From positions 2,768 to 66,767 of the forward strand of contig BJHQ01000003.1 of assembly GCA_014193115.1 (NCBI GenBank): 64,000 nt of DNA, read 5' to 3'. Under the pieces are notes generated by a model. The model was not told where the DNA came from, made no database searches, and worked only from the letters and a program-made list of their open reading frames with translations. Every line of letters begins with the position of its first letter. The stretch's first letter is position 1. Position numbers and translations under genes: made by a program. The stretch comes from Planctomycetota bacterium. Its GTDB lineage: Bacteria; Planctomycetota; UBA11346. Below are positions 4,475 through 47,864 of this stretch, piece after piece.

Positions 4475-4827
4475 GCATCCAGATCGTCCTCGACCGGGCG
4501 GCGGTCGCGCCGGGCGAAACGGTGACCGGCGAGGCGACGTGGACCCTGACCACGGCCCCGAAGCAGTTCGGTATTCGGCTGTTTTGGCACACCAGCGGCA
4601 AGGCCAGCCGCGACACCGGGATCGCCGGGGAGCAGATCGTCATGAACGCCGCGGCGAGAGGCAGCCAACGATTCTCGTTCGTCGCGCCGAGCAAGCCGGT
4701 CAGTTACGACGGACCGCTGGTCTCGATCCTGTGGGCGGTGGAAGCATTCGCCGATGCGGACGACACGGTGCACGAATACCTGATCATCAGCCCGACCCGG
4801 GAACGGTTGACGTTGTCCGGGGCCTGA
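4471..4827 (+). CDS. hypothetical small beta-sandwich protein
   Basis: ATGA overlap with the upstream gene. Good GC3. No recognisable motif. Confidence 0.5.
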   Translation: MSIQIVLDRAAVAPGETVTGEATWTLTTAPKQFGIRLFWHTSGKASRDTGIAGEQIVMNAAARGSQRFSFVAPSKPVSYDGPLVSILWAVEAFADADDTVHEYLIISPTRERLTLSGA

Positions 4828-4840
4828 CCGGCGGCAGCAG

Positions 4841-5386
4841 GTGACTCCGGCCAGGCTCAACCCGTTCCGCAGCGAACGCATCGAGTCCCTGGCCTTTCGG
4901 CCGACCGGGCCCGGCCAGGATCTGGCAGGCATTCAGGAACGATGGGAAAAAGCAGGCCGTCGCGGCGCCGTGGTCGGTCCCCACGGCAGCGGCAAGACCA
5001 CCCTGGTCGAGCAGCTCGGCCGGCGGCTGGGCGACACGACGTGGGTCGACGTGCGGCCCGGCGTGGCGCCGGTGACGTCATCGTCGGTGCTGCTGCTCGA
5101 TGGACTCGAACGTCTGCCCTGGCTGACCCGCCGGAGCTGGTTGGCGGCCTGCTGCGCTCCGGGCCTCATCGCCACCCTCCACCGCCCCGGATGCGGCCTG
5201 CCCGTGCTGCTGCGCACCACGACCACACCTGACGTGCTGGAAAATCTGGTGGCGGAGCTGCTCGGTCAGCCGGTGGATGACCACCGGGCCGCCGAATGCC
5301 GTCGGTTGTTCGCCGAACATCGCGGCGACCTTCGGGCCTGCCTGGAAACGCTGTATCGACGCTGGGCTGGCGAAGAAAGCGGCTGA
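4841..5386 (+). CDS. small P-loop NTPase
   Basis: Walker A GPHGSGKTTL and Walker B-like LLLDGLE. Begins 14 nt after the previous stop. Confidence 0.65.
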   Translation: MTPARLNPFRSERIESLAFRPTGPGQDLAGIQERWEKAGRRGAVVGPHGSGKTTLVEQLGRRLGDTTWVDVRPGVAPVTSSSVLLLDGLERLPWLTRRSWLAACCAPGLIATLHRPGCGLPVLLRTTTTPDVLENLVAELLGQPVDDHRAAECRRLFAEHRGDLRACLETLYRRWAGEESG

Positions 5387-5549
5387 ACCGCCATGGCGCA
5401 AAGACGGCAAGGAAAGGCTGGAATACCAATCAGAAGTGGATGGATCGTCATCCAAACCTTCTCGCCCCTGGCGCTTTGGTGTCATGGCGGTTCCCCAACA
5501 GCGTCGTCATGGTCGAGAGAGGCGCAAACGTCTGCAAAGAGTAACGAAT

Positions 5550-6410
5550 CTAGTCGCCCCGTCCGCGCAGCCGCCACGCGCTCGGACTTACCCCGACCAC
5601 TCGGCGGAACTGCTTGTTGAGGTGTTGAACATCGGAAAAACCCAAGCGTTCAGCGATCCGCGCCACCGGCAGGTCGGTGCCGCGCAGCTGGCTTTGCGCC
5701 AGTTCGATCCGGCGGGACAGCAGATAGCCGGCCATGGTCGTGCCGAAGTGGGCGCGGAAGGCCCGGGCCAGCCAGTTCGGCGACAAGCCGACCCGGCGCG
5801 CGATGGCCGAGGCGGAAAGCGGTGCCTCCAGCCGTCCATCGATCAGCGCGGCGGCCTGCTGGACGGCGGCGGTGCTGCGCAGAGCGCGGTCCTGCTCAGG
5901 CCGGCGGCTGCCGATCCACGCCGATCGGCCTCCGATCAGCGCCATGGTCAGCAACAGATCCAGCAACACCGCTCGGGCCGTGGCCCGGGCCAGATCGGAT
6001 TCCGCAGCCGGCGCAGCGAGCAGTCCGGCGATGCGCTGGATGCCGGACACCAGGCGGGTCCGGGCCGGCCCGCAGTGGACCAGCGCCGGGAGCAGCGCCG
6101 CTTCAGCGTGCGGGGCACCGCGCAACGGCCGGAAATGGACGCACCAGTGGTGGCCCGGATCGGGCAGATCGTAACGGGTTTCGCTGCCCGCCGCAGTCAC
6201 CGTGGCGTCGCCCGGGCGCAGGCCGAGCTCGACGCCGTCCAGCCGCCAGGTCCCGGAATACTCGTAGATGTGCAGGGCATGGGTCGGGCCGCGGTAGGAA
6301 TACGGGAAGCCGCGGTCGTCGAACCGGAACCGGCCGGCCAGGACTGGTTCGGGCAACCTATCGCACGGCCAGCGCAAACCGGGCGGAGACGTGGTCGGCG
6401 CAGCCATCAC
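5550..6410 (-). CDS. AraC-family transcriptional regulator (cupin plus HTH)
   Basis: The C-terminal AraC HTH reads ...ARIAERLGFSDVQHLNKQFRRVVGVSPSAWR. Confidence 0.8.
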   Translation of the reverse strand: MMAAPTTSPPGLRWPCDRLPEPVLAGRFRFDDRGFPYSYRGPTHALHIYEYSGTWRLDGVELGLRPGDATVTAAGSETRYDLPDPGHHWCVHFRPLRGAPHAEAALLPALVHCGPARTRLVSGIQRIAGLLAAPAAESDLARATARAVLLDLLLTMALIGGRSAWIGSRRPEQDRALRSTAAVQQAAALIDGRLEAPLSASAIARRVGLSPNWLARAFRAHFGTTMAGYLLSRRIELAQSQLRGTDLPVARIAERLGFSDVQHLNKQFRRVVGVSPSAWRLRGRGD

Positions 6411-6475
6411 TGGTGGATTCCTACCACGGACCAGGGTCCCGGTCCAGTTGCCCGGAGCGATCCAGTGGGGCTAGG

Positions 6476-7363
6476 ATGCGGTACGAGGAAACCGTCATGC
6501 TGTCCGCAAAAGCCCCAAAACCCAAGCCAACTGCGCGGCGAAAAGCCGCAGCCAAGCAGGCACCACAGCCGTCCTGTCCCGACCACCGGGATCTTGCCGC
6601 CGTGGCTTCATTTTTTACTGAGCACGGTTTTTACCACGGCCGGGGCGTCTTCGATCCGGCCACGGTGGACCGGCTCGAAGCCGATTTCGACCGGATCGTC
6701 GCCCAGATCTCCGCCACCGGCGAAGACATCAACGCCCGCCGGTTCTGGGACCACAAGACCACCCGCAAGCTCGACGGCGACCGGCCGTCGGTGGTCATCC
6801 ACACCCACCAGGTGCAGAAATACTCGGCCGCCTGGTCCCGCCTGCTGCTCGACGACCGGTTGCTCGATGTCGTCGGCAGCCTGATCGGTCCGGACATCGT
6901 GCTGCACCACACCAAGCTGTTCCTGAAGCCGGCCGGGCGCGGCGGCGCCTTTCCGGCCCATCAGGACCACGGCTATTTCCCCACCCTGCGCGGGGCGATG
7001 ATCGCAGCCAACGTGATCCTCAGCCGGCAAGACGAGACCAACGGCTGCCTGCGGGTCTGGCCGGGCAGCCACCGCCACGGACCGCTGCCGGCGAGCAAGG
7101 GCGATGACGAGACGTTCGCGGCGCGCTTCCCGATCGCAGCTTCCGTCCCGATCATCTGCGAGCCCGGCGATCTGGTGATCTTCCATTTCTGCACCGTCCA
7201 CGCCTCGCTTGCCAACCGCGGCGAGCGCGACCGCAAGCATGTGCTGGTCCAGCTCCATCCCGGCGACGACCGCCAGCTTGACGGAGTTCCGCATCCCGAC
7301 AGCAACCTGGTGCTGCGCGGCTGGAATCCGCTGATGACCCGGCAGCGCGCCGGAGCGTCCTGA
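6476..7363 (+). CDS. phytanoyl-CoA dioxygenase (PhyH) family Fe(II)/2OG oxygenase
   Basis: Family-typical length and HxD...H context (FPAHQDHGYF ... HFCTVHAS). The start was chosen at the in-frame ATG 6476. The ORF-track extension back to 5822 was rejected. Confidence 0.7.
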   Translation: MRYEETVMLSAKAPKPKPTARRKAAAKQAPQPSCPDHRDLAAVASFFTEHGFYHGRGVFDPATVDRLEADFDRIVAQISATGEDINARRFWDHKTTRKLDGDRPSVVIHTHQVQKYSAAWSRLLLDDRLLDVVGSLIGPDIVLHHTKLFLKPAGRGGAFPAHQDHGYFPTLRGAMIAANVILSRQDETNGCLRVWPGSHRHGPLPASKGDDETFAARFPIAASVPIICEPGDLVIFHFCTVHASLANRGERDRKHVLVQLHPGDDRQLDGVPHPDSNLVLRGWNPLMTRQRAGAS

Positions 7364-7372
7364 GCCGGCGGT

Positions 7373-7475
7373 CAGGTCGGCGTGCGGCCAGCCGACGATC
7401 AGGTCGGCGTGCGGCCAGCCGGCGGTCAAGTCGGCGTGCGGCCAGCCGACGATCAGGTCGGCGTGCGGTTCGCCC
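7373..7475. repeat. 27-bp tandem repeat, about 3.8 copies (CAGGTCGGCGTGCGGCCAGCCGACGAT)
   Basis: Direct visual periodicity. It spans the convergent junction between the PhyH stop and the AraC stop. Confidence 0.85.
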
Positions 7476-8295
7476 GCCAGGCGCTCGGCGCCACGCCGGA
7501 GTGGCGGCGGAACACCGTGGCGAACCACTGCGACGAGGGAAAGCCGAGCTCGTGGGCCACCGCCGTCACCGACCGCCCGGCGGCGAGCAGCTGCTTGGCC
7601 CGGGACAGGCGCTGGCGGCGCAGCCACGAGGCCGGCGGCTCGCCGACCTCGGCGATGAACCGGTCATGAAAACGGCTCGGCGACAGGCCGGCGGCCCGGG
7701 CCAGTGCGGCAACCCGCAGCGGCTGGTCGAGGCCGGTCCGGGCCAGGGCGGTGGCCCGGGCGATGGCCGGGCTGAGCGGCGACGCGCCATGGGCCGCGGC
7801 GGAACGCAGGGTCGCGACCAGCAGACGGTGCAGCGCCGCCCGGGCCGCGGCGGTGGCGCCCAGGCCGCCGGCCTGGCGATGCTCGCCGATGAGATCCCAC
7901 CACATGCCGGCGCTGACCTGGTCGGCGCGGAAGACCCGGGGCAGCGCCACCAGCCGGGCCTCCAGATCCGGCAGGTCGAGGCCCGGCAGCGGCAGGCGCA
8001 GATGCAGCCAGTACAGGTCGCAGGCCTGGAGAATCCCGTGATCGCCACCATGCAGTTCATCGGGATGGGTGAGGTAGCAATGGCCCTGCGGAACGGTGTG
8101 GGACTCGCCCTCGACCCACCAGTCGACCTCGCCGCGGCGCAGCCAGCACAGCTCCCAGGCGCCGGCATGACGGTGCGGCGCCAGGTCGAGGTCACCGGCG
8201 GCGAGGGGCCGGGTCCAGCCGAGCATCGGCATCTCGGGCAAAAGGCAGCTGGTGCCGGTGTACCACTCGCGGCGGGGACTGCGCAGGGACGGCAT
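7453..8295 (-). CDS. AraC-family transcriptional regulator (cupin plus HTH), paralog of 5550-6410
   Basis: C-terminal HTH ...VTAVAHELGFPSSQWFATVFRRHSGVAPSAWR with an N-terminal cupin. The exact start is uncertain. Confidence 0.75.
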   Translation of the reverse strand: MPSLRSPRREWYTGTSCLLPEMPMLGWTRPLAAGDLDLAPHRHAGAWELCWLRRGEVDWWVEGESHTVPQGHCYLTHPDELHGGDHGILQACDLYWLHLRLPLPGLDLPDLEARLVALPRVFRADQVSAGMWWDLIGEHRQAGGLGATAAARAALHRLLVATLRSAAAHGASPLSPAIARATALARTGLDQPLRVAALARAAGLSPSRFHDRFIAEVGEPPASWLRRQRLSRAKQLLAAGRSVTAVAHELGFPSSQWFATVFRRHSGVAPSAWRANRTPT

Positions 8296-34199: not shown

Positions 34200-34835
34200 A
34201 TGCGCCGTGTCGTCCTGGTCGGGGCCTGGGCGCTGCCTGTGCTGATCGCGATCCTGGTGGGATGGACGCTGCTCGACGACAGTCCGGAGGAACCGGCACC
34301 GAGCGGAGCGGCGGCGATGTTCCGCCATGTCATCCATTGGGGATTGTGGCGAGGCCGAGCGATCGCCGAGGCCGGACCAGGGATCAACGGCATCGCCCGG
34401 GCCGACCTGCGACCGGGGGATGTGCTGCTCTGCCGCACCGTCGGCACCTGCTATGGCACCTACAGCCACGCCGGCGTGGTGGTCGGTAAAGGCCAGGCGC
34501 TGGGCGCCGACATCCTCGCCGGCCTTTTTCTTGAGCCGGTCGATTGGCTGTCGGATTACGACGAGATCACCGTGCTCAGGCCGGGCACGGCGGAACAGGG
34601 CGAACGCGCCGCCGCCGCCGCCCGGGCCCTGGTCGGCCGCCCGTTCGCGCTCCACGCCCATCCCCGTGACCCCGGCCAGTTCAGCTGCGGCAAGGCGGCC
34701 ACCGTGGCCTGGCGCAGCGCCGGAGTTGAACTTGGCAATGGCAGTTTCTGGCCGAGCCCTGACGCCATCGCAGCCGGCGGCCACCCCGTGGCCAGCCGCT
34801 GGGCGAAGCGCGGGATTGGACTGGGCCAGAACTAA
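34200..34835 (+). CDS. permuted papain-like (YiiX/YaeF-like) putative amidase
   Basis: GDVLLCRT ... YSHAGVVVG pattern with an N-terminal TM/signal. This is a moderate family call. Confidence 0.45.
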   Translation: MRRVVLVGAWALPVLIAILVGWTLLDDSPEEPAPSGAAAMFRHVIHWGLWRGRAIAEAGPGINGIARADLRPGDVLLCRTVGTCYGTYSHAGVVVGKGQALGADILAGLFLEPVDWLSDYDEITVLRPGTAEQGERAAAAARALVGRPFALHAHPRDPGQFSCGKAATVAWRSAGVELGNGSFWPSPDAIAAGGHPVASRWAKRGIGLGQN

Positions 34836-35063
34836 AAACCGCGTGAAAGGTCATTGAAAATCCATACAGAGAACTGGAGAACTCCATATTGCGCTTGGTC
34901 GGCAGGCCCAGAGCATCGCCCGCACTGAGCCCATGCCAGGTCGCGACCATCGTCCGCATCCCGGTTCCGTGACATTTTTATCGGTGTCCCGGAGCGATGC
35001 TTCTGGGTTAAAGGGCCTTGTACTTGCATGACCAATCTCTGCCCGCGCCTCGGTTCCTGACGC

Positions 35064-35546
35064 ATGGATTCTGCCTCAACGTACGCGAACAGAATCCCTG
35101 AGCTGGTCCTGTTCATCGGAATCCAGGCTACCGGGAAGACATCCTTCTTCCGCGAGCAATTCCTGGTCAGCCATGTGCGCATCAGCCTCGATCTGCTGCG
35201 GACCCGGCACCGGGAGGCGCGATTTCTCGCCGTGTGCATTGAGACGCGGATGGATACGGTCGTCGATAATACCAATCCGACGAAAGAGGATCGGATCCGT
35301 TACATCGCCCCGGCCAAGACCGCAGGATTCGCCATCCGCGGCTTCTATTTCCAATCCCGGGCGGGCGAGGCCCTGGCCCGAAATGCACAGAGGGTAGGCA
35401 GAGCCCACGTTCCCGAAGCGGGAATCCTCGGCTGTGCCCGGCGTCTGCAGGTTCCCGATCCCAGCGAGGGGTTTGATGTCCTGCGCCATGTTTCTCTGCT
35501 GCCCGATGGCAGTTTCCTGATCCAGGAGTGGAATGATGGACTTTGA
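35064..35546 (+). CDS. P-loop kinase, polynucleotide 5'-kinase (PNK)-like
   Basis: Walker A LVLFIGIQATGKTSFF and the Walker B/NTN-like VVDNTNPTKEDRIRYI, as in T4 Pnk-family kinases. Lower GC than surrounding DNA. Overlaps the next gene by 14 nt. Confidence 0.65.
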   Translation: MDSASTYANRIPELVLFIGIQATGKTSFFREQFLVSHVRISLDLLRTRHREARFLAVCIETRMDTVVDNTNPTKEDRIRYIAPAKTAGFAIRGFYFQSRAGEALARNAQRVGRAHVPEAGILGCARRLQVPDPSEGFDVLRHVSLLPDGSFLIQEWNDGL

Positions 35547-36312
35547 TGAACTCGACCGCCAGATGCGGATCTTCGAGACCGCGCACGACCACTGCGTCCT
35601 GCCGGGGATCACCATCGTCGCTCGGCTCGACGGGCGTGGGTTCACGAAGCTGACCAAAGAGATCCACCAATTCGAAGCCCCCTTCGACACGCGCTTCCGC
35701 GATCACATGGCAGCGACGGTCGAACATCTGATGGGTATTGGAATGCGGATCATCTACGGTTACACGCAGTCGGACGAGATCAGCCTACTGTTCCATGTCG
35801 CCGATGACTCGTTCAATCGCAAGGAACGCAAGCTGCTGTCCATCCTCGCCGGAGAGGCGAGCGCCGCGTTTTCGCTGCGTTTGGGCTCACCGGGGATCTT
35901 CGACTGCCGAATCTGCCAGCTGCCCGACCGTCGCCAGGTGATCGACTATTTCCGCTGGCGACAGGAGGACGCCCACCGCAACGCTCTCAATGCCCACTGT
36001 TATTGGCTCCAGCGCCGTGAGGGAGCCAAGCCATCGTCCGCTTCGTCCAGGTTAGAGGGGATGTCCGTGGCTGAGAAAAACGAATTTCTCTTTCAGCGTG
36101 GGCTCAATTTTAACGAATTGCCCACCTGGCAGCGCCGAGGCATCGGTGTCCGCTGGTTGCACGTGGTCAAGGAGGGACGGAACCCGATTTCCGGCGAGAC
36201 CGTCCTGACTCAACGTCGCCGTTTGGCGGTCGACCTCGAACTTCCTATGCGCGAGGCTTATGCCGATCTCATTTGCAGCATCCTGGATGCGGAGAGCGGC
36301 AGCCGAACCTGA
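35533..36312 (+). CDS. Thg1-like protein (tRNA-His guanylyltransferase family 3'-5' nucleotidyltransferase)
   Basis: IVARLDGRGFTKLT, IYGYTQSDEISLLF, FDCRICQLPD...YFRWRQEDAHRNALN and EKNEFLFQRGLNFNELP align block-for-block with the Thg1/TLP catalytic core. Confidence 0.85.
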   Translation: MMDFDELDRQMRIFETAHDHCVLPGITIVARLDGRGFTKLTKEIHQFEAPFDTRFRDHMAATVEHLMGIGMRIIYGYTQSDEISLLFHVADDSFNRKERKLLSILAGEASAAFSLRLGSPGIFDCRICQLPDRRQVIDYFRWRQEDAHRNALNAHCYWLQRREGAKPSSASSRLEGMSVAEKNEFLFQRGLNFNELPTWQRRGIGVRWLHVVKEGRNPISGETVLTQRRRLAVDLELPMREAYADLICSILDAESGSRT

Positions 36313-36473
36313 TAACATGAGGCTCGATCAGATCCCCTCGGCACGTCGCGCTGCGCTCTTCGCTCGTCATCGGCGAGAACAGCAGCAACGTGGCGATGAG
36401 CTGCCGCTGTGGGTGCATCTGCGCTGGCTGGAAGCGATGACCGAGCCGGAAACCCTGGTCGATCAACCCGGGC

Positions 36474-37499
36474 TCAACCCATCACCAGATCCGCCAGAGC
36501 CGCGATGAACTGTGGATGGTCGTGGACGCCGATCGCCCGGGTCCAACCGAGGCCGAGCGCTGCGGACTGCTCCGCGCCAGCCACGTCGAGGTCGTACAGC
36601 ACTTCGACGTGATCGACCAGGAAACCGAAGGCCTGGGCGATGACCTCGCTGGCGCCGTTGGCTTTGGCCCTGGTCAGCGATTCTGCCAACGTTGGCGACG
36701 ACCACGGCACTGGCGAACGGTCAGGAGCGCTGACGAACGCGACGACGTGGTCCGGGTGGCCGACCAACGCAGCGATGGCTGCGGCATCCGCCTCGACCTG
36801 CCGGCGATAGGGCGTGGCCCGTTCGGCGGGCAGCGGAATGGCGTGGGCGACCAGCAGCAGCGGCGCAGCCGCAAAACGCTCCGGCGACCAGCCGGTCACC
36901 GCGTCGCGAATACGTGCAGCCGCAGCCCGCAGATACCCTGGATTGCCGGTCAGCGCTGGCAGCGCCGGCAAGAACGCCATGCCGAGATCCGCTGCGTCCT
37001 TGGTCGCGTCATCCAGATAGGCCTGCCAACGCGCTCCGGCTTGGTGCGGAGCCAGCACCAGCGGCTGCACCTGGTCGCAGCCGCGCTCGCGCAGGCGCCG
37101 GAGCGCATCCGCCGGCCACGGCGCCCAATGGCGCAGGCCCAGCTCCACCGGCCGCGGCTGGCCGCGCCTGGCCAATTCGGTCTCCAAGGCGCTGGCCTGC
37201 CGCCGGGTCAGCGCGGTGTACGGGCTGAAGCCCTTCGCGACTGAACGATAATGGTCTGCCACCGCCCGGATCCGTGGCAACGATGCGCCGTTTTCGCCAA
37301 TGCCGCCAAGCACGGCGGCGGCGAAACACTCGGCCTCGCAGGCGGGACTCCAGCCGTCGTCGCACTGGAGACGGGCCGGCGGTTTGACGGCAGGCGTGCC
37401 AACGGCGCAGCGTTCCCGGCGACCACAGCAGCCGGGTTCCGGCCCGCCGAATCCGAGCATCAGGACACCGATCACGCCGTTGTCTCCCCGGGCGCCCAA
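36474..37499 (-). CDS. hemH: ferrochelatase with an N-proximal Cys-rich insertion
   Basis: GVLMLGFGGPE ... HAIPLP ... EVLYDLD. A roughly 35-aa insert after the GGPE block carries 6 Cys. Confidence 0.8.
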   Translation of the reverse strand: MGARGDNGVIGVLMLGFGGPEPGCCGRRERCAVGTPAVKPPARLQCDDGWSPACEAECFAAAVLGGIGENGASLPRIRAVADHYRSVAKGFSPYTALTRRQASALETELARRGQPRPVELGLRHWAPWPADALRRLRERGCDQVQPLVLAPHQAGARWQAYLDDATKDAADLGMAFLPALPALTGNPGYLRAAAARIRDAVTGWSPERFAAAPLLLVAHAIPLPAERATPYRRQVEADAAAIAALVGHPDHVVAFVSAPDRSPVPWSSPTLAESLTRAKANGASEVIAQAFGFLVDHVEVLYDLDVAGAEQSAALGLGWTRAIGVHDHPQFIAALADLVMG

Positions 37500-45653: not shown

Positions 45654-45944
45654 TCAGCGCCCGGCAGGCCGGAACCGTTCCGCCGCTTCGCCAGTGTCCT
45701 CGCAGCGGGCGTCTTCGTCCGGGGTCAGGGTGGTGTCGACGCGGGAGCAGACCACGCCTTCGGCTTCGAGCGCGGCCCGAACCGACTTGGTGCCCAGGGC
45801 CTCGCCGGCGACTGTGGCGTTCCAGCCGTTGGGAGCGATCCACACCGCTTTGGCCTTGGCCAGGCCGGCCAGGGCGAGCTGTGTCAGCACCCGGCCGTCG
45901 CGGCTGAGCGGTTTGGCGAAGGCAATTGTGACCAGCATAGTCAT
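45654..45944 (-). CDS. small hypothetical protein
   Basis: 96 aa. Overlaps the upstream and downstream genes by 4 nt and 1 nt. Good GC3. Confidence 0.4.
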   Translation of the reverse strand: MTMLVTIAFAKPLSRDGRVLTQLALAGLAKAKAVWIAPNGWNATVAGEALGTKSVRAALEAEGVVCSRVDTTLTPDEDARCEDTGEAAERFRPAGR

Positions 45945-46888
45945 GGGCGTGGTCCGGTCGCATCGCGCGGTGGGTCGGTGCGCAGTGAAGAAGCTTCGGT
46001 CCGGGTCTGGCGGATAAACCGCTCCATGATCGCAACGATCCGTTGGAACTGGTCTTTACCGGAAAAATGCAGCGTGATGTTCCCAGAACCATCGGCGCGC
46101 TCGCGGACGGCGACCCGGGTGCCGAACAAGTGCAGCAGGTTCGCTTCAAGCTCTTTGAGGTGCGGTGGCTTGCGCGAACGGCCGGCGTCGGCGTCGGAGG
46201 CTGGGATCGGCTGCTCCTGGTCCGGCCCGGACCGGGCCAGCCGCTCGACCTCGCGCACCGACAGGCCATCGGCCGCCGCCCGCTCGGCCAGGGTCTGCTG
46301 CCAAGCCGGATCGGCGCAGCTGAGCAGGGCTTTGGCGTGGCCCTGGCTCAGCGTGCCATCGGTCAACCGGGCGATGATGGCCGACGGCAGATCGAGCAGG
46401 CGGAGGAGGTTGGAGACGCTGCTGCGCTCCTTATTGACCCGATCGGCGACCTGATCGTGGGTCAGGCCATGCTGGTCGATCAGAGCGCGATAGGCCCGAG
46501 CCAGTTCGACGGCATTCAAATCTTGGCGCTGGATGTTCTCGACCAGTCTCAGCTCGGCAACGTGCTGTGGATTGTCCTCTTCGCGGACCACGACTGGTAC
46601 CCGGAGCAGTCCAGCCAGACGGGCGGCTCGCCATCGTCGTTCGCCAGAGAGGATTTCGTAGCCGACCTCCCGGCGCAAGACAACGATCGGCTGAAGCATG
46701 CCGTGTTGGCGGAGGCTGGCAGCAAGCTCGGTGAGCGATGCCTCGTCAAAATCGGTCCTCGGGTTGGCGGACGGTGGCCGCAGCAAACCGAGGTCGACTT
46801 CCAGATAACCCTTGGTCGGTTCCTTCCGAGCGGTTCGCTGGAACACGTCGGCTAAACTTTTACCAAGGGTATGGTCAGCGAATGACAT
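45941..46888 (-). CDS. parB: chromosome partitioning protein ParB
   Basis: ParB box GERRWRAARLAGL and an HTH. Typical length. Confidence 0.9.
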   Translation of the reverse strand: MSFADHTLGKSLADVFQRTARKEPTKGYLEVDLGLLRPPSANPRTDFDEASLTELAASLRQHGMLQPIVVLRREVGYEILSGERRWRAARLAGLLRVPVVVREEDNPQHVAELRLVENIQRQDLNAVELARAYRALIDQHGLTHDQVADRVNKERSSVSNLLRLLDLPSAIIARLTDGTLSQGHAKALLSCADPAWQQTLAERAAADGLSVREVERLARSGPDQEQPIPASDADAGRSRKPPHLKELEANLLHLFGTRVAVRERADGSGNITLHFSGKDQFQRIVAIMERFIRQTRTEASSLRTDPPRDATGPRP

Positions 46889-46903: not shown

Positions 46904-47644
46904 TTAGGATGGTTTTATCAGGGAGAGGAGCCATCGCGTGGCTTCGAGATAGGCCAAGGCTCCTGCACAAAGTGGGTCGTAGGTCGTGATGGTTGCACTA
47001 TGGCTTGGTGCAGCAGCCAGCGAGGTATCGCGAGGGATGGGAACAGGTGCAATGTGATTGGGGAAGTGTTTGCCAATTTCAGCAAGGACCTGATGAGACA
47101 TGATGATGTCAGGATCAAACATGGTGACCAGGATGCCAGCAAGACGAAGCTGGAGCTGGGCGGTTATTCTTAATTGGTCAACATATGCCAGAAGTTGGCT
47201 CAGGCCCTCCAGGGCAAAATATTCACTTTGGAGGGGGATCAGCAGATAGTCAGCAGCAAGCAACGCGTTTGTTGGCAAAACGGTCAGGTTTGGAGGCGAA
47301 TCGATCAAAATAAGATCGAAGTGAGGCTGGTGCTGGACCAACAGGCTGGAGAGTGCCCTCCGGCCATCATGAGACTGTGCCAGGACTTGTTCACGATCCA
47401 GCAAGTCATTCCCGGCAACGATACAGCTGAGATTCGAGTGGGCGGTGGAGACAGGCTTTGCTCCGCCATAAATGGACGGACCCTCAACGTCAGGCGCCAA
47501 AACGCTAGAGGCATTCCCCTGTGGATCGTTGTCAACAACCAGCACGCGCTGGCCAGCAAGGGCAGCGAACGCAGCAACATTCACCACGGTCGTCGTTTTG
47601 CCAACGCCACCCTTTTGGTTGGCGACAGCAAGAATGGTGGCCAT
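46904..47644 (-). CDS. parA: chromosome partitioning ATPase ParA
   Basis: Deviant Walker A NQKGGVGKTTT. Start at MATILAV. GC content is conspicuously lower than in parB. Confidence 0.9.
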   Translation of the reverse strand: MATILAVANQKGGVGKTTTVVNVAAFAALAGQRVLVVDNDPQGNASSVLAPDVEGPSIYGGAKPVSTAHSNLSCIVAGNDLLDREQVLAQSHDGRRALSSLLVQHQPHFDLILIDSPPNLTVLPTNALLAADYLLIPLQSEYFALEGLSQLLAYVDQLRITAQLQLRLAGILVTMFDPDIIMSHQVLAEIGKHFPNHIAPVPIPRDTSLAAAPSHSATITTYDPLCAGALAYLEATRWLLSLIKPS

Positions 47645-47652
47645 GGCCAGAG

Positions 47653-47702
47653 GTTCTACGTGGAACACGCCGGTCAAGAGCCAAAGGCGTTCCACGTGGA
47701 AC
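47653..47702. promoter_or_regulatory. two parS-like palindromes (GTTCTACGTGGAAC at 47653-47666, GTTCCACGTGGAAC at 47689-47702)
   Basis: A 14-bp palindrome closely related to the canonical parS core TGTTTCACGTGAAACA. They lie 9 nt and 45 nt upstream of parA. Confidence 0.65.
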
Positions 47703-47864
47703 AGCAGGCTTTGAAAGACCATCCAAATATAGGTTCAAACAAACCTGTTCCGGTTTTGAGAGCTGTGAGTGCTGATAGCCGAGGACTTGCTAAGGCGCTG
47801 ATCCGATCGTAGGCTGGAAGACTCGGGATGCCTAGTTCCCATCGTCCTGCTGGAGCACGCCGTC

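Follow-up and report, generated by a model that had tools for sequence, protein, structure and literature searches.

A two-gene cassette in a Planctomycetota bacterium pairs a small P-loop kinase that belongs to the polynucleotide kinase (PNK) family with a Thg1-like protein (TLP), and the balance of the evidence moderately favours its being a horizontally acquired, translationally coupled operon that heals and rebuilds RNA 5' ends. It is located in a stretch of 64,000 nucleotides (nt) of contig BJHQ01000003.1 (assembly GCA_014193115.1, positions 2,768 to 66,767 of the forward strand), hereafter called the window. An earlier reading of the DNA letters (the original prediction) had proposed a two-step pathway for this locus, from a 5'-hydroxyl (5'-OH) to a 5'-phosphate and then to templated 3'-5' fill-in. 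Both the pairing of kinase and TLP and the scheme in which the kinase acts before Thg1 were already published in 2010 (PMC2904730), and the window locus is one further example of them.

The kinase and the Thg1-like protein

The upstream protein, of 160 amino acids (aa), almost certainly belongs to the polynucleotide 5'-OH kinase family, of which it is a minimal, standalone form. The Walker A motif GIQATGKTSF (residues 19-28) and the DNTNPTKEDR motif (residues 68-77), on which the original prediction had based a PNK-like assignment, are both present in its translation, and the sequence profile and the predicted fold of the protein bear this assignment out. Pfam gave a match to AAA_33 (4.6e-12) and a match to Zeta_toxin below threshold, with no phosphatase, ligase or other further domain. 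The single sequence matched only the kinase domain of mammalian PNKP in the PDB (1.6e-10). The family profile, built from 68 members, matched PNKP (7.6e-20), Clostridium thermocellum Pnk (CthPnk, 1e-10), Mucorales RNA 5'-OH kinases (4e-9 and 8e-8), the tRNA-dependent kinase PSTK (8e-8), T4 Pnk (1e-4) and Pnkp1 (2e-4). All its significant PDB matches were polynucleotide 5'-kinases or PSTK, without exception, and the sole further match, to C14orf129, was insignificant (E = 0.7). The AlphaFold model of the kinase, computed with 44 homologues, had a mean predicted local distance difference test score (pLDDT) of 92.8. In the Foldseek search, ranks 1 to 17 were all polynucleotide kinases (PNKP, Mucorales RNA 5'-OH kinase and CthPnk), with query-normalised TM-scores of 0.66-0.79, and gluconokinases and PFKFB kinase domains followed at an E-value of about 1e-5, some five orders of magnitude behind.

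The residues expected of a PNK-type active site are conserved. Among the 68 and the 44 homologues, G19, G24, K25, D43, R48, D68, N71, R77, R106, N107 and R110 were invariant or nearly so. The protein shows the succession typical of the PNK family, that is, a Walker A motif GxxxxGK[ST] (G19-K25-T26), then an aspartate and a downstream pair of arginines. D43 aligns with the aspartate of the VNRDTL segment of PNKP, and the R106-N107-x-x-R110 motif is kept. The catalytic roles of these residues, such as that of the aspartate as general base for the 5'-OH, are taken from published work on PNKP, CthPnk and T4 Pnk. The protein falls outside the two NCBIfam PNK families TIGR01663 (bifunctional PNKP; 28.3 bits against a cut-off of 502.8) and TIGR04075 (bacterial Pnkp; 15.1 bits against 750), both of which matched over the kinase segment only. 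These cut-offs fit multidomain proteins of 520-851 positions and are therefore out of reach for a protein of 160 aa. We infer that the kinase acts on RNA 5'-OH ends.

Judged by its sequence, the downstream gene almost certainly encodes a TLP. Its product matches both Pfam domains of the Thg1/TLP superfamily, Thg1 (PF04446; 5.2e-31, 107.7 bits, cut-off 29.2) and Thg1C (PF14413; 7.3e-14, 52.5 bits, cut-off 26.3), and its active site is intact, in agreement with the match to the catalytic core reported in the original prediction. Its best match of known structure in the PDB is the Methanosarcina acetivorans TLP (5axk, 2.7e-30); human THG1 comes next (3.7e-23), and the TLP of Bacillus thuringiensis (BtTLP, 2.6e-14) is far more distant. 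Six residues were invariant in 81 family members (E15, R31, D33, R35, D81 and E82). D33, within RLDGRGF, and D81-E82, within QSDEIS, align with the RLDGRNF and QSDEYS segments of human THG1 and thus with the catalytic carboxylates, which are D30/D75/E76 in BtTLP and D29/D76/E77 in the human enzyme (PMC3701042). At the position of HINNLYN, a eukaryote-specific motif for recognition of the tRNA-His anticodon (PMC6471195), the protein carries HRNALNA, and it is therefore filed as a TLP and not as a tRNA-His guanylyltransferase proper.

Conservation, layout and mobility of the gene pair

The two genes almost certainly form an operon, and they belong to the conserved PNK-Thg1 gene neighbourhood described in PMC2904730. 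To assess their linkage, we scanned for related loci from both sides. The TLP-anchored scan, with one genome per species, gave 80 loci (56-79% identity) from at least 10 phyla, and included Planctomycetota, Chloroflexota, Cyanobacteria, Bacteroidota, Gammaproteobacteria, Verrucomicrobiota, Acidobacteriota, Myxococcota, Enterococcus, Synergistaceae and others. Among the 79 of these with room for a kinase, 71 had it upstream on the same strand, abutting or overlapping the TLP gene in 70 cases. The kinase-anchored scan covered 80 metagenome loci, and a TLP followed directly downstream in about 65 of the 77 informative ones. The pair is thus kept in many phyla whichever gene is used for the search. 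Among cultured organisms, Nannocystis radixulma (L084) has an intact pair. Pairwise identities of the kinases and of the TLPs were correlated (Mantel r = 0.76; reached in 0 of 2000 permutations), as expected, on this sequence measure, if the two genes evolve and move together. The TLPs found alone include those of a Nostocales subgroup. Other arrangements were seen around kinases lacking a TLP: at one locus (L115, 3998-4905) an ASCH-domain open reading frame (ORF) overlaps the kinase stop by 13 nt, and at another (L150, 222-1508) the kinase is fused to an S-adenosylmethionine-dependent methyltransferase in a single ORF of 428 aa.

By its sequence, the junction of the two genes has the classic layout for translational coupling (Table 1). 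The longest TLP ORF (35533-36312, +, 259 aa) overlaps the kinase ORF by 14 nt, as originally stated. The TLP start, however, is probably the second ATG, at 35536, as indicated by 69 aligned homologous junctions and by the genes called, for this organism, on each of three independent contigs. The overlap is then 11 nt, as is typical in the family. Accordingly, an exact-sequence look-up of the 259-aa form gave no match, as gene callers take the second ATG. An AGGAG Shine-Dalgarno-like motif at 35524-35528 lies within the last codons of the kinase gene, whose TGA stop occupies 35544-35546. The 11-nt overlap had the form ATGAARTTTGA in 52 of the 69 junctions and is preceded by GAGGAG or GAGGAA, a ribosome-binding motif encoded by the conserved C-terminal E-E-W codons of the kinase. 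The invariance of this E-E-W motif and the conservation of the overlap suggest that kinase and TLP may form a complex.

Table 1. Features of the cassette and its borders (positions are those of the window).
Feature	Position	Strand	Remarks
Intergenic leader 5' of the kinase gene	34836-35063	none	228 bp, 57.0% GC
Standalone PNK-family P-loop kinase, 160 aa	35064-35546	+	Identical to LBMAG53_09990 ("hypothetical protein")
Gene junction region	35524-35546	+	Shine-Dalgarno-like motif, TLP ATG, kinase stop
Thg1-like protein (TLP), predicted 3'-5' nucleotidyltransferase, 258 aa	35536-36312	+	
Trailer, TLP stop to 3' end of the convergent ferrochelatase gene	36313-36473	none	64% GC

No third gene was universal across the cassette loci, and the recurring extra genes near the pair in other genomes all encode RNA-repair enzymes. 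Five loci (L013, L014, L015, L022 and L049) have the order Hen1-kinase-TLP-Pnkp, with a trifunctional Pnkp. Three others (L017, at 4780-7627, L020 and L031) have the order RlaP-kinase-TLP-RNA ligase (PF09414), RlaP being a Pol-beta nucleotidyltransferase, which suggests that nucleotides are restored on both sides of a break before sealing. An AbiEii-RNA ligase fusion lies downstream of the pair in L011, and proteins with HD and AAA_33 domains are near it in L028 and L069. The presence of the pair inside Hen1-Pnkp and RlaP-ligase operons supports a role in RNA repair. The window cassette is the bare two-gene form, and neither Pnkp nor Hen1 is encoded within ±10 kb of it. The Hen1-kinase-TLP-Pnkp operons, which lie in the stretch from some 2 kb upstream of the TLP start to 3.5 kb downstream of it, carry two PNK-type kinase modules each. 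A further pair, with a 4-nt overlap, is found on the mobilizable (MOBP) plasmid p_TS293_5 of Deinococcus taeanensis (L168, 29601-34860), where it is followed by a DUF705 gene, Hen1 and two nucleotidyltransferase genes.

The original prediction took a low guanine-plus-cytosine (GC) content, of about 57%, and an AT-richer leader as signs of horizontal acquisition. The dip is real and exceeds local variation, although the segment 34836-36330 has 59.4% GC rather than the figure given, against a mean of 68.3% (standard deviation 3.0%) in windows of 1500 bp; the leader is indeed AT-richer. Only 10 of the 625 windows of this size had a lower GC, all in the parAB region at about 46-47 kb. The GC of third codon positions was 0.70-0.75 in the cassette genes and 0.79-0.90 in flanking genes. 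Over 75 loci, cassette GC followed host GC from 28% to 67%, with a median of 3.7 points under the flanks, so that part of the dip is a family trait. The 9-point deficit of the window locus ranks among the larger ones, and the remainder fits a relatively recent arrival. Nucleotide homology to the closest relative, in another Planctomycetota genome (L001), extends from 35094 to 36263 only, at 74% identity; no homology was shared between the flanks of the two loci, and the leader was likewise not conserved in L001. This lack of shared flanks and the GC deviation both fit horizontal acquisition, and on these sequence limits the cassette appears to move as a unit of 1.2 kb.

A search for direct and inverted repeats around the low-GC segment, as possible insertion scars, gave only short chance matches. 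The promoter and terminator scan of the cassette surroundings found none, using the sigma-70 consensus only, which is little informative for a Planctomycete. Scans of the whole window found no Rfam match and no tRNA gene, and hence no tRNA integration site and no known leader RNA. The cassette can also decay: L086 keeps about 27 TLP codons (5437-5517) after an intact kinase, the TLP of L028 has an in-frame stop (at about 6262) just past its SDEISLLFH motif, and the kinase of Adhaeribacter (L085) stands alone, without any trace of a TLP. We read these three loci, in which the cassette is no longer intact, as signs of such decay.

The neighbours of the cassette within ±10 kb are all housekeeping genes: purH, a GDSL hydrolase gene, glyA (serine hydroxymethyltransferase), hemH (ferrochelatase), purE/purK and the genes of ClpS and L27 (rpmA). 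No integrase, transposase, toxin or defence gene was found in this range. The kinase is 100% identical to LBMAG53_09990, from a Planctomycetota metagenome-assembled genome. Directly 5' of the low-GC segment, gene callers place a gene of 211 aa (34200-34835, +) with host-typical GC and no Pfam match. Two kinds of additional ORFs were discarded. Antisense ORFs over the cassette (e.g., 35076-35690, -) recur in other loci and are mere shadows of conserved coding sequence, and an ORF of 63 aa (36317-36508, +), 5 nt past the TLP stop, is probably no gene, having no Pfam match and no conservation in L001. The sole part of the window with a GC content under that of the cassette, about 56% in 1500-bp windows, contains parB (45941-46888) and parA (46904-47722), both on the reverse strand; their odd composition could mark a nearby replication origin or a foreign origin of the genes.

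Proposed pathway and competing explanations

Metal-independent RNases leave 5'-OH ends. The 5' end on which Thg1/TLP enzymes work must carry either a monophosphate, for the enzyme to activate, or a triphosphate (PMC6471195). Since a 5'-OH is not among the ends that TLPs are reported to activate, a dedicated 5'-kinase would complete the pathway. The kinase would move the gamma-phosphate of a nucleoside triphosphate onto a 5'-OH that arose through cleavage by a metal-independent ribonuclease or through chemical breakage. The TLP would then activate the new 5'-monophosphate by adenylylation or guanylylation and add the lost nucleotides in the 3'-5' direction, with the opposite strand as template. 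The likeliest substrate would be a tRNA acceptor stem missing 5' nucleotides: in vitro, TLPs of bacteria and archaea rebuild tRNAs truncated at the 5' end, copying the 3' strand of the acceptor stem (PMC3061083). Once a stem has lost a short 5' piece, ligation can no longer put it back, and templated resynthesis is then the logical fix. Within Hen1-Pnkp or RlaP-ligase operons, the pair probably restores 5'-side nucleotides ahead of ligation. Our data show the protein families, the intact active-site residues, the conserved linkage and junction, the RNA-repair neighbourhoods of other genomes and the mobility of the pair as a unit; what the kinase phosphorylates, in which order the two enzymes act, which RNA is damaged and by what agent are inferences. 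The two-step pathway of the original prediction is well supported by the comparative evidence, all computational checks proposed with it having come out in its favour, and was already a published prediction (PMC2904730).

Several points weigh against this RNA-repair role. The linkage is not obligate, as a kinase is missing beside about 10% of the TLPs of the clade and a TLP beside about 16% of the kinases, some of which pair with an ASCH-domain protein or are fused to a methyltransferase. We are aware of no ribotoxin shown to produce a recessed 5'-OH in the 5' strand of a tRNA acceptor stem. No phosphatase, ligase, Hen1, toxin or defence gene was found within ±10 kb of the window cassette. A DNA substrate is also conceivable, since PNKP, the closest relative in structure, acts mainly as a DNA kinase. 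Databases label the kinase family just "AAA family ATPase" or "predicted kinase," our literature search found no biochemical data on any kinase of the cassette family, and a 2019 review of Thg1/TLP enzymes never mentions the kinase. No experimental follow-up of the 2010 kinase-then-Thg1 proposal was found in the literature either.

Of the competing explanations, housekeeping tRNA maturation survives best, but we consider it unlikely. The pair would then install or restore G-1 of tRNA-His, or edit particular tRNA 5' ends, like eukaryotic Thg1 and the Dictyostelium TLPs. The location of the cassette among core metabolic genes would suit such a role, and the only TLPs with proven physiological roles work in tRNA maturation (PMC11957112). 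This is hard to reconcile with the patchy, horizontally transferred distribution of the pair over at least 10 phyla at 56-79% identity, with flanks that share no synteny even when compared with the closest relative, with the decayed and pseudogenised copies, and with the embedding of the pair in dedicated RNA-repair operons of other genomes. Moreover, G-1 is genomically encoded in most bacteria (PMC3061083), and RNase P leaves a 5'-phosphate (PMC11957112), so that normal maturation would need no 5'-kinase.

It is quite improbable that the pair belongs to a conflict system without a repair function or to a DNA-directed system, in which it would modify the 5' ends of foreign or self nucleic acids for anti-phage defence or counter-defence, or in which the TLP would mainly make 5'-App ends for a ligase. 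In favour of such a system, the cassette is mobile and occurs on the mobilizable Deinococcus plasmid, distant TLPs are common in large phages, the closest solved relative of the kinase acts on DNA ends, and the 5'-App route was named as an alternative in PMC2904730. Nevertheless, the PADLOC models gave no match for the kinase and only a chance-level match of the TLP to Cas8g (E = 4.6e-4), and a defence system was rejected as the primary reading on this result. The kinase was absent from 50,697 phage records, and the phage TLPs, at most 32% identical, form a different and distant clade, on which grounds a phage-derived cassette was also rejected. No defence or mobile-element genes are near the cassette in the window, and its recurring partners elsewhere are repair enzymes and not toxins. 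Finally, it is very unlikely that the kinase is a generic AAA_33 kinase acting on small molecules or nucleotides, akin to gluconokinases or Zeta, whose adjacency to the TLP would not reflect substrate channelling: the broad Pfam assignment, the gluconokinase and PFKFB matches and the NCBIfam scores far under their cut-offs would allow it, but polynucleotide kinases led all others by 5-15 orders of magnitude in the profile and fold searches, the VNRDTL-aligned aspartate and the R-N-x-x-R motif are invariant, and tight operonic coupling to an enzyme needing a 5'-phosphorylated polynucleotide would otherwise be hard to explain.

Relation to known systems and implications

Read as an RNA 5'-end repair operon, the cassette is closest to the predicted PNK-Thg1 operon (Anantharaman, Iyer & Aravind 2010, Biol Direct 5:43, PMC2904730), in which members of both families occur in an identical order. 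Its authors proposed that the kinase supplies the 5'-phosphate required by Thg1/TLP, and noted Macro-domain and RNA-ligase genes in subsets of the loci; the association with RNA ligases was seen again here. Nothing essential differs, except that the window copy has no Macro domain or ligase. The bacterial Pnkp-Hen1 and Pnkp1-Rnl-Hen1 systems also use a PNK-family 5'-kinase, and heal RNA cut by ribotoxins. These systems process both termini, add a methyl group to the 3' nucleotide and finish by ligation, thus rejoining fragments, whereas the window cassette, lacking phosphatase, ligase and Hen1, would replace lost nucleotides by templated synthesis. In the Pnk-Rnl1 tRNA repair of phage T4, end healing by a PNK-family enzyme likewise precedes the action of a second enzyme that restores the tRNA after nuclease attack (PMC12776372). 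T4 religates a nick in the anticodon loop and its Pnk has a 3'-phosphatase, whereas the window system would polymerise in the 3'-5' direction as its second step. T4 Pnk also matches the window kinase much more weakly than does the kinase domain of mammalian PNKP (PDB 1yj5, 3u7g and 3zvn), the best match in sequence and fold. The latter shares the Walker A motif, an aspartate at the position of D43 and a VxDNTNP motif with the window kinase. PNKP, however, is a multidomain DNA-repair enzyme, with a phosphatase domain in the solved catalytic fragments, and the window protein is the kinase module alone, at 24-27% identity.

The window TLP has the same Thg1/Thg1C fold and catalytic carboxylates as BtTLP and the TLPs of Methanosarcina acetivorans (MaTLP) and Myxococcus xanthus (MxTLP), whose in vitro activity is the templated 3'-5' repair of 5'-truncated tRNA. 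In the PDB search it was nearer to the archaeal MaTLP than to BtTLP, with which it is about 27% identical. A TLP gene on the B. thuringiensis plasmid pAM65-52-3-235K (L167, 143089-151763), presumably that of the structurally characterised BtTLP, has no PNK-like neighbour, and genes for a SLOG-family protein and a GIY-YIG nuclease lie upstream of it. BtTLP would therefore be outside the kinase-linked clade, and nothing about the partnership with the kinase could be learnt from it.

The physiological functions of most TLPs, bacterial ones included, were described as still undefined in a 2025 paper by specialists of these enzymes (PMC11957112). Among genomic clues to the role of bacterial TLPs, the strongest is that they are tightly paired, by translational coupling, with a minimal polynucleotide kinase. 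As this clue has been in print since 2010, the window locus adds an example and sharper numbers and not a new concept. Our analysis contributes measures of how often the two genes are linked, taken from either side, and describes the conserved coupled junction of 11 nt. It also contributes the finding of the pair within operons of the Hen1-Pnkp and RlaP-ligase types, the evidence for a mobile unit of 1.2 kb, and the presumed BtTLP gene without a kinase partner. More speculatively, and less likely than not, the kinase-linked TLP clade may represent a portable, self-contained module for restoring 5'-end nucleotides. Standing alone, as in the window, such a module would guard against a putative class of RNases that remove 5' nucleotides from tRNA acceptor stems or other RNA duplex ends and leave a 5'-OH; as part of a Hen1-Pnkp or RlaP-ligase operon, it would do on the 5' side what RlaP is proposed to do on the 3' side, namely restore nucleotides. 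If the RNA-repair role is true, templated reverse polymerisation would be a genuine route of bacterial RNA repair, beside the repair based on ligation.

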